DNA of 64,000 nucleotides from Chiloscyllium plagiosum (Eukaryota), in contig NC_057718.1 of NCBI RefSeq assembly GCF_004010195.1, positions 84,671,730-84,735,729 of the forward strand, read 5' to 3'. Below the pieces are notes generated by a model, which ran no database searches, was not told where the DNA came from, and worked only from the letters and a program-made list of their open reading frames with translations. Numbering within the stretch: the first letter of the stretch is position 1; the number at the start of each line of letters is the position of its first letter. A program made the position numbers and the translations under genes. Below are positions 2,577 through 59,315 of this stretch, piece after piece.

Positions 2577-4484
2577 TCTGTAATACAGCCCCAACAATGT
2601 AACTGCACCCTTCTTATTTCTCAGCTCCACCCATAATGCTTCACTACCCAAGACCGCCATAGTGTCCTCCTTTAGCACAGCAGTGATATCGTCCCTGACC
2701 AGCAATGCAACTCCACCCCCTCTTTTACTTCCATCCCTGTCCTGTCTGAAGCGTCTATATCCCGGAACATTTAGTTGCCAATCATCATGCCCTTCCTTCA
2801 ACCAAGTCTCTGTGATGGCAATAATGTCATACTCCCAGGCACCAATCCAAGCCCTACGTTACACACTATACTCCTTGCATTAAAGTAGATGCATTTCGGG
2901 CCACCAGTTCTTTTGCGCTTACCTGCTCTCTGCCTATTCTTCCCTTTATTAATGTTATCTTGATAATTCTTAGTCTCCACCTCGCTGCCTACTTGTTTAC
3001 TCTTCTGGTTCCCAGTCCCCTGCCACATTAGTTTAAAACCTCCCCAACAGCAGTAGCAAAAACTCCCCCAAGGTCATTAGTTCCAGTCTGGTTCAGATGT
3101 AGACCTTCCCTTTTGTAATATTCCCACCTTCCCCAGAACCGGTCCCAATGTCCAACAAATCTGAACCCCTCCCTCCTACACCATCTCAAGCCACGTGTTC
3201 ATCCTGCCTATTTTTTCATTTCTATGCTGGCTAGCACATTGCAGATCACTACCTTTTGAGGTCCTCCCCTTTAACTTCTCTCCTAGCTCCCTGAATTCTT
3301 CTTCCAGGACCTCCTCTCTCTTCCTACTTATATCGTTGGTGCCTATATGCACCAACTCAACTGGCTGTTCACCCTCCTCTTTTAGAATGCTCTGCAGCTG
3401 ATTGGTGACATCCCTGACCCGAGCACCTGGGAGGCAACATACCATCTGGGAGTCCCATTTGAGGCCATAGAACCGCCTATCTACTCCCCTCACAATAGAA
3501 TCCCCTATGACTATGGCCCTACGAGTCTTTTTCCTGCCCTTCTGAACAGCAGTGCCTACCACAGTGCCATAATCTTGACAACTGCTGCCCTCCTCTGGTG
3601 AGCCATCTTCCCCAACAGTATCCAAAACGGTATACCTGTTTTGGAGGGAGATGACCTCAGGGGACACCTGCACTGCCTTCCTGCACTTTTTCTGTCTTTT
3701 GGTCACCTATTTACGGTTTCCCTCAGCAATCCTAACCTGTGGTGTGACCAGTTCACTAAACGTGCTATCCACGAAAGACAGTTCTTTGAAATAGCTGTTC
3801 AATAAGTCCCCAACTCCCCTTTTTCCTACAGTCTGCATTTTTTAAAATTCTAAGTATTTAATAATGGTTACTCTTGAATTTTGCTTTTGTTCCCCATTCT
3901 GGTCACGTATTCCTGATCATCATGACTTGCTGTGTTTTACATGTATACCCTCATGTCACCTGATTAGTTGATTTTCTTTTCACCTGTGCCTTTAAAATCT
4001 TGTTCTCTGGTAAGCAATCCTTCTGCCATGACAAGCAATTTCTTTCCTTAATCAAATGATCATGACTTTGAACATTCAAAGTCAAGGTAAATGGGTAATT
4101 TAATAAAGTAAAGCAAATATCTCAAGTTTCTTTAGTCTTGTAAGGAGAGTTTAATCTCTGTACAATTTTAGTAAATCTCTTCTACACCCATGTCCTTTCA
4201 AAATGGAGTGCCTAGAATTGGACACAATGGTACTATTCTAGTCTGTAGCTGAGATCTAAAGTGTTTTATCAAGGATTGCCAAAACTTTGCTGGTTTTGTA
4301 CTCTGCATTTGCTTACAAAACTGAAGAATGCTATCTGCTTTTTAAACAGTTTCCTTAACCTGTTCTGTTACCTTCAAAGATTTATATTAATGTGCTCCAT
4401 TTTGTTTGTGCACCCCTTTAAAAATGTGCATTTCGTTTCTGTTGACTTTCCTGATTCTGGTTTCCAAATGATTTATCAGACTTC

Positions 4485-13759: not shown

Positions 13760-14620
13760 CATGTTTTTCCTCCATTTGGATTACCCAGAATTCTTCTGTA
13801 ACCATCTCCAGAAAGGATTTGAATTCAGAGTTATTCTTAAGGGCCAGCACCTCCTTGATTGCTTTCATCTTGTCCTCTATGGGGTGCAACTCCTGTGTAT
13901 CCGCCCAATAATGAAGGTAAGCTGCTTCTTTCGCCTGGAAGGTGCACTTCTGCTTTCAGAAGCACTCCTGTTTCCTGGAATCACTTTAATATTACTAAAT
14001 TTTACAAGTGTTTTTCTTCAGTAGGTCCTGTTAGTAATATGTCTTCCAAGTACACCATAACACCCAGCAAGTTTTGCAGTAAACTGTCCTTTGTTCTTTA
14101 GAATATAGCATACTCTAAAATTCCAAAAAGCAAGCAGGTGTTGTAGTACAGCACTTTATGGTTGTTTAAGGTGCCGCATCTCTTTGAGACATTGTCCAGC
14201 TTCAACTGCTGGTAGACATGACTCATGTCTGGCGAAAGTGAGGTCTGCAGATGCTGGAGATCAGAGTCAAGATTAGAGTGGTGCTGGAAAAGCACAGCAG
14301 GTCAGGCAGCATCCGAGGAGCAGGAAAAACGATGTTTCGGGCGAAAGCCCTTTATTAGGAGTCGGGAAAGGCTTTTGCCCGAAATATCATTTCCCTGCTC
14401 CTCGGATGCTGCCTGACCTGCTGTGCATTTCCAGTACCACTCTAATCATGACTCGTGTCTCACTTGTTGAACATATGACCTCCCAGCCTGTTTTCCATGT
14501 AGATCTCCAATATTTGGAGTCGAGTACTTAGCCAGATTCGCAGCCTGGTTCACCATCCACTTGTAATCTCTACAGATATAAATGCTTTTATCCAGTTTCA
14601 CTCCTGGCACAATGAATATT
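13760..14620 (-). mobile_element. Gypsy relic, reverse transcriptase part
   Basis: DMSHVYQQLKLD, VYLEDILLTG (YxDD-like), HPIEDKMKAIKEVLALKNNSEFKSFLEMV; same orientation as the pieces at 6.6-7.5 kb and 10.1-10.85 kb. Confidence 0.7.
14231..14446. mobile_element. Fold-back (palindromic) Penelope-derived mini-element
   Basis: ~85-nt inverted arms; flanking duplication catgactcatgtct (14217-14230) / catgactcgtgtct (14447-14460). Confidence 0.8.
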
Positions 14621-21749: not shown

Positions 21750-22838
21750 TAGCTGGAATGTGTTGCTGGAAAAGCGCAGCAGGTCAGGCAGCATCCAAGA
21801 AGCAGGAGAATCAACATTTCGGGCATAAGCCCTTCTTCAGGAATGAGGAGGGTGTGCCAAGCAGGCTAAGATAAAAGGTAGGGGGGAGGGGCGTTGGGAA
21901 TGCGATAGGTGGAANNNNNNNNNNNNNNNNNNNNNNNNNNNNNNNNNNNNNNNNNNNNNNNNNNNNNNNNNNNNNNNNNNNNNNNNNNNNNNNNNNNNNN
22001 NNNNNNNNNNNNNNNNNNNNNNNNNNNNNNNNNNNNNNNNNNNNNNNNNNNNNNNNNNNNNNNNNNNNNNNNNNNNNNNNNNNNNNNNNNNNNNNNNNNN
22101 NNNNNNNNNNNNNNNNNNNNNNNNNNNNNNNNNNNNNNNNNNNNNNNNNNNNNNNNNNNNNNNNNNNNNNNNNNNNNNNNNNNNNNNNNNNNNNNNNNNN
22201 NNNNNNNNNNNNNNNNNNNNNNNNNNNNNNNNNNNNNNNNNNNNNNNNNNNNNNNNNNNNNNNNNNNNNNNNNNNNNNNNNNNNNNNNNNNNNNNNNNNN
22301 NNNNNNNNNNNNNNNNNNNNNNNNNNNNNNNNNNNNNNNNNNNNNNNNNNNNNNNNNNNNNNNNNNNNNNNNNNNNNNNNNNNNNNNNNNNNNNNNNNNN
22401 NNNNNNNNNNNNNNNNNNNNNNNNNNNNNNNNNNNNNNNNNNNNNNNNNNNNNNNNNNNNNNNNNNNNNNNNNNNNNNNNNNNNNNNNNNNNNNNNNNNN
22501 NNNNNNNNNNNNNNNNNNNNNNNNNNNNNNNNNNNNNNNNNNNNNNNNNNNNNNNNNNNNNNNNNNNNNNNNNNNNNNNNNNNNNNNNNNNNNNNNNNNN
22601 NNNNNNNNNNNNNNNNNNNNNNNNNNNNNNNNNNNNNNNNNNNNNNNNNNNNNNNNNNNNNNNNNNNNNNNNNNNNNNNNNNNNNNNNNNNNNNNNNNNN
22701 NNNNNNNNNNNNNNNNNNNNNNNNNNNNNNNNNCTCCAGCCTATCACCCTCACCTTAACCTCCTTCCACCTATTGCATTCCCAACGCCCCTCCCCCAAGT
22801 CCCTCCTCCCTACCTTTTATCTTAGCCTGCTTGGCACA
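21750..22838. mobile_element. Penelope-like element in inverted arrangement spanning an assembly gap
   Basis: 21855-21914 is the reverse complement of part of 22734-22838; both match 60140-60350. Confidence 0.75.
21915..22733. other. Assembly gap (819 N)
   Basis: Run of N. Confidence 1.
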
Positions 22839-56125: not shown

Positions 56126-57099
56126 ACAGCTATACCTGAGGGGTTTAATTCAGATATTCCTGTACAGTATGTTAAATGTAAATCCCCATGATATCCAACT
56201 CTAATTATCCATTTTTGACACCTTCTATACTGTCATTGTGCTGACAGACTTTATGTGGGAAAATGTAGCATTGGATTAATCTTGGATTACTCAAACTGAG
56301 CATTGGGAAACCCAAAGTTATCTGTATCCCTTCCATAGATACCTCCTCTATGCAATTGATTCTAACCTTCATGCCACCATTGGTTCAGGTTGAACTAAAG
56401 TGTTCACAGCTTCCATGTTATGACTGCCGCTAGCTGAACATCAGACTTTAAATCGTCTCCATTGCTTATGGAAAGTTGCCATTTCCCCTCCCCACTACCA
56501 AGCCAATTTAGTCATAGTCATAGAGAGGCTCACCCGTCTATAGTTCCCTGGCTTGTCTTTACCGCCCTTCTTAAATAGTGGCACCACGTTTTGCCAACCT
56601 CCAGTCTTCCAGCACCTCACCTGTGACTATCAATGATTCAAATATCTCAGCAAGAGGCCCAGCAATCACTTCTCTAGCTTCCCACAGAGTTCTTGGGTAC
56701 ACCTGGTCAGGTCCTGGGGATTTATCCACTCTTAACCATTTCAAGACATCCAGCACTTCCTCCTCTGTAATCATAGTCTTAGAAATGTACAGCATGGGAA
56801 CAAGACCCTTCGGTCCAAATTCCACACTGACCAGATATCCCAACCCCATTTAGTCCCATCAGCCAGCACTCTGCCCATATCCCTCCAAACCTTTCCTATT
56901 CATATACCCATCCAGATGCCTTTAAATGTTGCAATTGTATTTGCCTCCACCATTTATTCTATACACGTTTCACCCTCTGCGTGAAAAAGTTGCCCCTTAG
57001 GTCTCTTTTATATCTTTTCCCTCTCACCCTAAACCTATGCCCTCTAGTTCTGGACTCCCCCACCCCAGGGAAAAGACCTTGTCTATTTATCCTATCCAT

Positions 57100-57904
57100 T
57101 AGTTAAAAATCACACAACACCAGGTTATAGTCCAACAGGTTTAATTGGAAGCACACTAGCTTTCAAAGCGACGCTCCATCAGGTGATAGTGGAGGGCTCG
57201 ATCGTAACACAGAATTTATAGAAAAATTTGCAGAGTGATGTAACTGAAATTATACATTGAAGAATTGATTGTCTGTTAAGCCTTTCATCTGTTAGAATAC
57301 AGTGATAGTTTCACTTCTTTCATGTGTAAATCACAAAATCCTTTTTTTAAAAAGTTGCATTCTCGGGTTAGCTGTTAACAATGGTGATAGCTAGACAATA
57401 TGTTGAAGGTGTTAGCCCCCTGTGTTCTCTGTCTATGACCTGATGTTTAGATTGATTCCAATCTAAAAAGTGAGATAACAGAGTTTTACATAAATTCATG
57501 CAGTTTTTGAGCTCAGAGTTCTATATGAATGTATGTGGTAACTCTGAGCTCAAAAACTGCATGAATTCATGTAAAACTCTGCCATCTCACTTCCCAGACT
57601 GGAATCAATCCAAACATCAGGCCACAGACAGAGAACACAGGGGGCCAACACCCTCAACACACCGTCCAGCCATCACCATCGTCAACAGCCAACCCGAGAA
57701 TGCAACCCCCAACAAAAGGATTTTGTGAAAGAAGCGAAACCACCACTGCACTTCAACAGATGAAAGGCTCAACAGACAATCAACACCTCAATGTATAACT
57801 TCAGTTACATCACACTGCAAATTCCCGCCACAAACCCTGTGCTATGATCGAGCCCTCCACCACCACCTGATGAAGGAGCGTCCAATACCGGCATCTCCGA
57901 ATCA
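57100..57904. mobile_element. Fold-back Penelope-type insertion with ~350-bp inverted arms, right arm T>C hypermutated
   Basis: 57170-57520 pairs with 57540-57882; hammerhead-like ctgatgaaggagcgtc at 57867-57882; flanking duplication tatcctatccat (57088-57099) / tatcctatccgt (57905-57916). Confidence 0.85.
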
Positions 57905-59315
57905 TATCCTATCCGTGCCACTCATTATTTTATAAACCTCTCTAAGGTCACCCCTCCACCTCCCCCCCCAGCTTCCGACACTCCAAGGAAAACAGCCCCA
58001 GCCTATTCAACCTCTCCCTATAGCTCAAATGCTCCAACACTGGCAACATCTTTGTAAATCTTTTCTGAACCCTTTCAAGTTTCACAGCATCTTTCTGATA
58101 GGATGGAGACCAGAATTGCATGCAATATTCTAAAAATGGCCTAACCAATGTCCTGTACAGCTGCAACATGACCTCCCAGCTCCTGTACTCAATACTCTGA
58201 CCAATAAAGGAAAGCATATCAAACGCTGCCTTCACTATCCTACCTACCTGCAACTCCATTTTCAAGGAGCTATGAACCTGCACTCCAAGGTCTCTTTGTT
58301 CAGCAACACTCCTTAGGACCTTATCCTTAAGTGTATAAGTCCTGCTAAGATTTGCTTTCCCAAAACGCAGCACCTCCCATTTATCCAAATTAAACTCCAC
58401 ATGCCACTTCTCAGCCCATTGGTCCATCTGATCAAGATCCTGTTGTAATCCGAGGTAATCTTCTTCGCTACACCTTCACTTTTGGTGTCATCTGCAAACT
58501 GACTAAGTATACCTCTATACATCCAAATCATTTATATAAATGACGAAAAATAGTGGACCCAGCACCGATCCTTGTGGTCTCCAATCTGAAAAACAACCCT
58601 CCACCACCATCCTCTTATCTTCTATCTTTGAGCCAGTTCTGTATCCAAATGGCTAGTTCTTCCTGTATTCCATGAGATCTAACCTTGCTAACCAGTCTTC
58701 CATGGGGAACCTTGGCGAATGCCTTACCGAAGTCCATATAGATCACGTCTACTGCTCTGCTCTCATCAATCCTCTTTGTTACTTCTTCAAAAAGCTCTAT
58801 CAAGTTTGTGAGACATGATTTACCACGCACAAAGCCATGTTGACTATCACTAATCAGTCCTTGTGTTTCCAAATACATGTACATCCTGTCCCTCAGGTTT
58901 CCCTCCAATAACTTGCCCACCACCGATGTCAGGCTCAGTGGTCCATAGTTCCCTGGCTTGTCCTTACCTCCCTTCTTAAACAGTGGCACCACGTTAGCCA
59001 ACCTCCAGTCTTCCGGCACCTCACTGTGAATATCGATGATACAAATATCTCAGCAAGAGGCCCAGCAATCACTTCTTTAGAGTTCCCACAGAGTTCTAGG
59101 GTACACCTGATCAGGTCCTGGGGATTTATCCACTTTTATCCGCTTCAAGACAACCAACACTTCCTCCTCTGTAATATGGACATTTTTTCAAGATGTCACC
59201 ATCCATTTCCCTACATTCTATATCTTCCAAGTAAATACTGATGCAAAATACTCGTTTAGTATGTCTCCCATCTCATGCAGGTCCACACAAAGGCTGCCTT
59301 GTTGATCTTTGAGGG

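Follow-up and report, generated by a model that had tools for sequence, protein, structure and literature searches.

The window analysed here is a stretch of 64,000 nt of Chiloscyllium plagiosum (assembly GCF_004010195.1, contig NC_057718.1, positions 84,671,730–84,735,729 of the forward strand). Positions 57089–57916 of this window constitute a single insertion within a high-copy host repeat. The inserted DNA carries two copies of the same unit in opposite orientations, and its features are listed in table 1. The inverted repeat recognized when the sequence was first read, with arms at 57170–57520 and 57540–57882 and a 19-nt loop, was recovered at the same coordinates by a repeat search and by gapped local alignment. 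Folded as RNA, 57170–57882 yields -563 kcal/mol for the - strand, on which the differences between the arms give G.U pairs, and -437 kcal/mol for the + strand, on which they give A.C mismatches.

The insertion is flanked by a duplication of its target, as had been proposed by the sequence-only reading; the duplication is 11 nt long with one mismatch, and the proposed length of 12 bp is reached only by counting one ambiguous T. The empty site is visible in paralogues: contigs of the host repeat match the window up to 57099 and then resemble it closely from 57917, and joints in host-repeat contigs jump from 57099 to about 57920. Elsewhere, the window contains a run of 819 N (21915–22733), which is either an assembly gap or a withheld stretch.

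Table 1. Features of the insertion. Positions are those of the window; strands of the arms refer to the sense of the element.
Feature	Position	Strand	Remarks
Left copy of target-site duplication	57089–57099		11 nt; one A/G mismatch with 57906–57916
Left arm, unedited	57101–57539	-	about 440-nt 3′ unit of a Penelope-like non-autonomous element; 95–97% identity, more than 40 genomic copies
Spacer ('loop')	57521–57539	-	19 nt; last 19 nt of the left arm, unpaired with the right arm
Right arm, hypermutated	57540–57879	+	same unit as the left arm; defined by arm alignment and family alignment
Edited tract	57568–57863	-	42 A>G on the - strand (T>C on the +); 42/87 A sites inside
First 26 nt of the family's 38-nt 'tail' (distal reverse transcription start site)	57880–57905	+	reverse complement matches 25/26
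Right copy of target-site duplication	57906–57916		partner of 57089–57099; empty-site paralogues

The unit appears, from its longer genomic relatives, to be the 3′ untranslated end of a Penelope-like retroelement. Two such relatives (L031 and L032) extend into an open reading frame (ORF) for a reverse transcriptase (RT), on the strand opposite to the + strand of the left arm. In L031 this ORF lies upstream of the unit: residues 47–651 of P0001, a 654-aa uncharacterized carpet-shark protein, align to positions 3352→1559 and end about 100 nt before it. The proteins closest to the RT ORF are uncharacterized carpet-shark proteins with 69% identity, in which Pfam finds RVT_1 alone; more distant relatives combine RVT_1 with GIY-YIG, the Penelope-like architecture. 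No intact GIY-YIG domain was seen in the family copies examined, and Pfam, finding RVT_1 alone or RVT_1 + GIY-YIG, showed no RNase H domain among the element's relatives.

The majority of copies represent a non-autonomous family, about 565 nt long, whose 3′ ~440 nt are common with the RT-bearing element. A 38-nt tail precedes the unit in about half of the copies; the others begin at a constant position some 38 nt further inward, and either start, with or without the tail, is found in solo copies. All 11 examined loci that have one + and one - unit start carry exactly one tailed start, and in the window the tail is found on the right arm only. The window and several further loci of the family contain inverted 5′-truncated partner copies. 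For Penelope-like elements (PLEs), a tail and two internal RT start sites are described in PMC11167929 and in the available part of PMC8557442, where inverted 5′-truncated partner copies with a tail at one end are also stated to be a hallmark of these elements (Craig 2021). The Penelope-type assignment made from the letters of the window is thus supported by the RT ORF, by the RVT_1 + GIY-YIG relatives, by the inverted truncated partner and by the tail at one end.

The direction of the RT ORF and the position of the tail orient the two arms: on the + strand the left arm reads antisense, its 3′ end lying at 57101, and the right arm reads sense. The left arm has no tail: it starts at 57101, at the proximal RT start site, and is 5′-truncated at 57539, its start having been compared with those of other copies. 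Family copies run colinearly from this arm through the spacer, and the right arm starts 19 nt inside the left arm's truncation point. The tail piece forms the outer end of the right arm and abuts the target duplication directly; given this match, 22 nt at the right end that look like filler belong to the canonical distal start.

Two deletions distinguish the right arm. One of 84 nt near its 3′ end lies between two 3-nt repeats (junction 57879/57880). The other, of 11 nt (left-arm coordinates 57323–57333), is present in identical form in three otherwise different copies (L039–L041) and may be either inherited or recurrent. An origin of the arms from different subfamilies, suggested by the sharing of this 11-nt deletion, was considered and is made less likely by rare variants common to both arms and to a second fold-back on C6 described below. 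The 84-nt deletion takes out most of a hammerhead-like region. On the sense strand of a typical copy (L003), CUGAUGA, a 5-bp stem, GAAA and a short stem are visible in this region, and no helix I was found. Rfam gave no hammerhead match at E<=1 for the window or at E<=5 for L031; it returned only generic long-hairpin microRNA matches below gathering scores and two weak lncRNA matches (window and L031).

The two arms were compared over 355 columns of a gapped local alignment of the assembly bases. There are 290 matches, 44 positions with A in the left arm and G in the reverse complement of the right arm, and five other substitutions (two G/A, two A/T and one T/G, left/right); the remaining 16 columns are gaps, representing indels of 3, 1, 11 and 1 nt. 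The manual count with which the analysis began, about 44 T>C differences against about five others, is therefore exact.

The polarity of these differences was established from a MAFFT alignment of both arms with 41 other genomic copies, with the family majority as the reference. At 42 of these 44 positions the majority base is A, as in the left arm; the remaining two have a T majority, and the A carried by the left arm is a minority allele there. Since the family sides with the left arm at 42/44 sites, the right arm is the derived one, and the suggestion that the left arm is ancestral is confirmed. Relative to the family majority, A>G affects 42 of 98 A sites in the right arm and T>C 0 of 121 T sites (Fisher p = 4.5e-18); only seven other substitutions are present, namely G>A at 2/69 sites, C>T at 1/55 and four transversions. 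The core of the left arm carries five substitutions, none of them A>G or T>C.

The element family is young. When the left arm (57101–57530) was searched against the 3.56-Gb assembly and the best 40 of 2957 candidates were scored, more than 40 places with 95–97% identity were found. The best match of the right arm other than itself reaches 84% identity (best 40 of 1882 candidates scored). Of 73 distinct matches 150 nt or longer, the right arm stands out with 42 A>G changes, and the next highest count among the 72 others is five, the loci of this tally being the best query matches and so biased toward clean copies.

Two other sources of such a pattern were considered and ruled out. A C-rich subfamily from which the right arm might have been drawn is excluded by the best match of 84% among the 40 scored of 1882 candidates. 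An APOBEC-type editing with the left arm as the derived one, through G>A, is incompatible with a left arm equal to the family majority and with the scarcity of G>A and C>T in the right arm. A further fold-back in the window had been proposed as an internal control. It shows no bias, as had been claimed (11 differences of seven types), and represents a different, shorter repeat; its ends lie at 14257–14352 and 14367–14461 instead of the 14231–14446 first given. The arms of this fold-back are about 96 nt long and are separated by a 14-nt spacer.

The context of the changes was read on the strand on which they are A>G. The frequency of edited sites depends strongly on the 5′ neighbour (T 18/23, A 16/30, C 4/21, G 4/23; chi-square p = 2.5e-5) and is independent of the 3′ neighbour (G 11/25, C 5/13, A 15/29, T 11/30; p = 0.68). 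The 5′ neighbour bias previously noted by eye is thus confirmed, and no 3′ bias is seen. Some triplets are almost always changed (TAG 8/8, TAA 6/8, TAT 3/4, AAT 6/9), and others never (CAT 0/7, CAG 0/7, GAG 0/5); TAG, TAA and TAT together are edited at 17/20 sites against 0/19 for CAG, CAT and GAG.

Judged on the assembly bases, the 5′ context and the triplet pattern are those of ADAR enzymes. The right arm carries one substitution type on one strand, in a cluster that is dense over hundreds of bases (42 of 87 A sites in 57568–57863) and follows the 5′ order U>A>C~G with UAG best, as is typical of ADAR-type editing. A preference for 3′ G was also sought at the edited sites and is absent (11/25, compared with 42/97 for A sites as a whole). 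Its absence counts for little, since ADAR1 shows such a preference weakly. No edits are found in the inner 28 nt and outer 19 nt of the arm (0/10 sites against 42/87 in the middle, p = 0.004); this apparent avoidance of duplex ends was given no weight as evidence for ADAR, because 8 of the 10 end adenines have an unfavourable 5′ C or G. The host assembly contains exons of the A_deamin domain (PF02137) above the cut-off at six places. For deoxyadenosine in DNA/RNA hybrids, the available part of Zheng 2017 (PMC5389660) gives ADAR values of 94% for TAG, 81% for AAG, 53% for CAC, 43% for AAT, 27% for GAA and 19% for GAC. We consider it probable that the right arm was subjected to ADAR-type deamination before or at integration.

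Errors of a polymerase could also place the changes on the strand where they are observed: the RT might place dG opposite U, or dC might be placed opposite dA during second-strand synthesis, for example when dATP is scarce. Such errors could touch one cDNA molecule only, and U-to-C hypermutation at low dATP is made by HIV-1 RT (van der Kuyl 2012, PMC3511177, available part). This explanation is nonetheless unlikely. It would have to generate an extreme dependence on the triplet (17/20 against 0/19) in the known order of ADAR; dislocation-type errors predict an effect of 3′ G, which is absent (11/25); and the left arm, a product of the same event, is without such changes.

An artefact of assembly or base-calling, with arms that are in truth identical, deserves consideration, since inverted repeats are difficult to sequence and assemble. 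Assembly problems at PLE insertions are mentioned in the available part of Craig 2021 (PMC8557442), and no read or contig spanning the locus was found. There were 24 sequencing runs listed, none with more than 0.47 of the sampled words, and there was no RNA run among them. The Logan contigs of the low-coverage runs X1, X6, X4 and X7, searched at 90% likeness, include no piece that spans the locus. Those at the locus are short and dominated by other repeat copies, and they neither confirm nor refute the bases of the right arm, the middle of which is nearly uncovered (bin 57679–57719: X1 2.59, X4 0, X7 14). At two edited sites, 57599 (X1, depth 10.5) and 57663 (X6, depth 6.28), low-depth contigs from two studies carry just the letter of the window, which is a weak argument against an artefact. 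A single substitution type on one strand with enzyme-like triplets corresponds to no known mode of error, and the arms differ by indels and by the tail as well. We regard an artefact as highly improbable.

Run X7, which bears the label of another organism, contains a 192-nt contig at 57554–57706 whose likeness to the edited arm is about 90%. This contig carries C at the further T sites 57591 and 57665, and T at the edited sites 57599 and 57663, and may represent another, independently T>C-rich copy of the family; only copies mutated in the same polarity were within reach of the search method.

The molecule that was deaminated can be approached from the anatomy of the insertion. Both outer ends are RT start sites and lie within a single target duplication, so that the arms resemble two cDNAs primed separately at the target. 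Most simply, a single integration event would have involved both cDNAs, one for each target strand. A purified PLE protein indeed cleaves and extends both target strands from these internal start sites (Frangieh 2024, PMC11167929). With dual priming of this kind, the - strand of the right arm is its first-strand cDNA, and it is this strand that bears the A>G changes. The strand of the RT ORF and the tail at the element's 3′ end place these changes antisense to the element RNA. The sequence-only reading had called the changed strand antisense to a hammerhead-bearing strand; the antisense orientation stands on the ORF and the tail, and the hammerhead is without an Rfam match. Editing of the RNA template would have put A>G on the sense strand, where none is found.

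Two substrates had been offered at the outset, an edited antisense RNA and the first-strand cDNA, and the anatomy favours the latter, because the cDNA is the only antisense molecule expected to begin exactly at an RT start site. We give slightly less than an even chance to the first-strand cDNA, deaminated in its RNA:DNA hybrid, as the substrate. Such hybrids could persist, as Pfam reveals no RNase H domain among relatives of the element. According to the available part of PMC5389660, full-length ADAR2 also edits long, perfectly matched hybrids; the same paper reports few edited sites in vitro when wild-type ADAR2 acted on a matched 90-bp hybrid, which speaks against this substrate. Activities demonstrated on DNA strands fall far short of what a change of 42/87 adenines over 300 nt would require. 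The total absence of edits from the hybrid of the other arm would likewise need an ad hoc explanation, such as an all-or-none action on each molecule or a stalled complex.

The antisense RNA remains a competitor for the role of substrate. On this view, ADAR would have hyper-edited the antisense strand of a dsRNA formed with the element's sense RNA, and this strand would then have been reverse-transcribed into the right arm, possibly by a jump of the RT from the 5′ end of the left arm's template. The spectrum and the context fit. Double-stranded RNA is the proven substrate of ADAR, and editing of about 40–50% of adenines with this context is the classic outcome on a long duplex, with which the locus agrees. 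Antisense transcripts are plausible, as copies of the family are present in both orientations and by the thousand (2957 first-look candidates). The difficulty lies in the canonical tail start at the target duplication: an RNA whose 5′ end falls at an RT start site would be a coincidence. Moreover, the sense strand shows no edits (T>C 0/121 in the right arm, none in the left), and an antisense RNA is not known to carry a recognition element for the PLE RT. An edited antisense RNA therefore appears unlikely as the source of the right arm.

An independent fold-back of the same family at C6:44187879–44188691 (L025/L044; C6:44188268) bears on the origin of the pair. It has its own target duplication and carries the tail on the opposite arm, together with its own 54-nt internal deletion in the tail-less arm, and is not hypermutated. 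Its central junction is that of the window (97% over 90 nt), and it has the rare variants carried by both window arms. Either a lineage of RNA with a fixed 5′ end and a fixed joining point gave rise to both fold-backs, or the fold-backs themselves were copied. The common junction is not predicted by dual priming and hints at a further mechanism or template. Another locus of the family (L048, C15:20240788–20243872, about 1560–2530) contains a tandem array of palindromic pieces of about 35 and 70 nt derived from the unit's 5′ portion, with older copies of about 84% identity on either side.

The resemblance to the C6 fold-back, as if both insertions descended from a fold-back template, leads to a fourth explanation: the hairpin RNA of an older fold-back copy, edited by ADAR, would have served as a single template, or else the right arm would be a snap-back of the left cDNA. 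A transcript of the - strand does fold into an almost continuous hairpin, of -563 kcal/mol. Editing of a hairpin should affect both arms, which is at variance with the 42 and 0 changes observed; the ends of both insertions coincide exactly with canonical start sites and include no flank from a source locus, and no source copy was found among the best 40 of 1882 candidates. A snap-back copy is contradicted by the 26 nt of tail in the right arm, which are missing from the left. We consider these hairpin-based origins very doubtful.

The scheme that we favour, deamination of first-strand cDNA, joins the observed spectrum, polarity and context of the changes, the orientation of the element, its canonical ends and the single target duplication as follows. 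A non-autonomous PLE of about 565 nt would have entered the host repeat once, in the form of a head-to-head pair. Each target strand, once nicked, would have primed reverse transcription of the element RNA at a canonical internal start, the proximal start on the left and the distal start, leaving the 'tail', on the right, and the two first-strand cDNAs would have met 5′ end to 5′ end. We infer that an ADAR-type adenosine deaminase then attacked the DNA strand of the right-hand RNA:DNA hybrid, before the second strand had been synthesized and while the cDNA was still paired with its RNA, and converted about half of the adenines in favourable positions. The resulting deoxyinosines would have been copied as G, fixing A>G on the cDNA strand and T>C on the sense strand of the element, and the left-hand cDNA would have escaped. 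The full sequence of events, in which ADAR deaminated cDNA within its hybrid in the shark germ line and the product was integrated and inherited, is a serious possibility that we nevertheless place below an even chance. As the evidence for hypermutation comes from a single locus, an ADAR-type restriction of Penelope elements, as raised when the sequence was first read, is speculation.

Activity of ADARs on DNA/RNA hybrids has been shown in vitro (PMC5389660, available part). Editing of DNA by ADAR in living cells is an open question, for which natural evidence is indirect. Changes on the cDNA strand of an insertion whose geometry is defined make this question countable: the strand of A>G clusters can be compared with the position of RT start sites, and genomes rich in young Penelope-like elements are suited to such counting. 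If our reading is true, the locus would be the first natural, genome-fixed record of ADAR as a mutator of DNA, and the first case of an APOBEC-like attack on retroelement cDNA directed at adenine. It would represent an adenine-directed counterpart to APOBEC hypermutation and a source of sudden sequence novelty in retroelement families. Should the sceptical readings hold, the locus still provides a clear case of PLE insertion by dual priming. Our literature search brought up no ADAR-type cluster on a retroelement's cDNA strand, whether Penelope-like or other, and no account of antisense-strand A>G among genomic ADAR fossils in retroelements, although one may have been described before; for Penelope-like elements together with ADAR it returned, by title, general works only.

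Hyper-editing by ADAR, and A>G or U>C 'biased hypermutation', are known for RNA viruses and for retroviral genomic RNA. The tract in the right arm resembles ADAR hyper-editing of long dsRNA, which affects about 40–50% of adenines on one strand, in clusters and with the 5′ order U>A>C~G. It differs from retroviral editing, where the genomic sense RNA is the target and A>G appears on the sense strand; at this locus the changes lie on the antisense strand, and the sense strand is free of them.

As an insertion, the locus is similar to the inverted PLE insertions described in PMC11167929 and in the available part of PMC8557442, with a head-to-head 5′-truncated partner, a tail of 30–40 bp at one end and a target duplication, both target strands being cleaved and extended. 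Asymmetric hypermutation of one arm, seen here, has no mention in PMC11167929 or in that part of PMC8557442. As a chemical pattern, it resembles the deamination of deoxyadenosine in vitro (Zheng, Lorenzo & Beal 2017, PMC5389660, available part), which affects the DNA strand of an A-form hybrid, as is proposed here, and follows the same triplet order, with TAG best and GA-N worst. Those reactions were performed in the test tube, mostly at mismatched sites or with hyperactive mutants, and involved few sites per duplex, whereas the event proposed here would be natural, dense and inherited through the germ line.

The closest natural parallel is provided by APOBEC3-type G>A hypermutated retroelement copies, which are fixed in vertebrate genomes (Zaranek 2010, PMC2873906; Knisbacher & Levanon 2016, PMC4866542; both in their available parts). 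In those fossils, as would be the case here, a host deaminase acts on first-strand cDNA in the course of reverse transcription and the mutated copy integrates and persists, and both show one substitution type on one strand in the preferred context of the enzyme. Three differences separate the two. The change on the cDNA strand is A>G here and C>T in the APOBEC3 fossils, which points to the adenosine deaminase class; the substrate would be a hybrid duplex here and is single-stranded cDNA there; and the element is Penelope-like here, and an LTR element or a LINE in the APOBEC3 cases.
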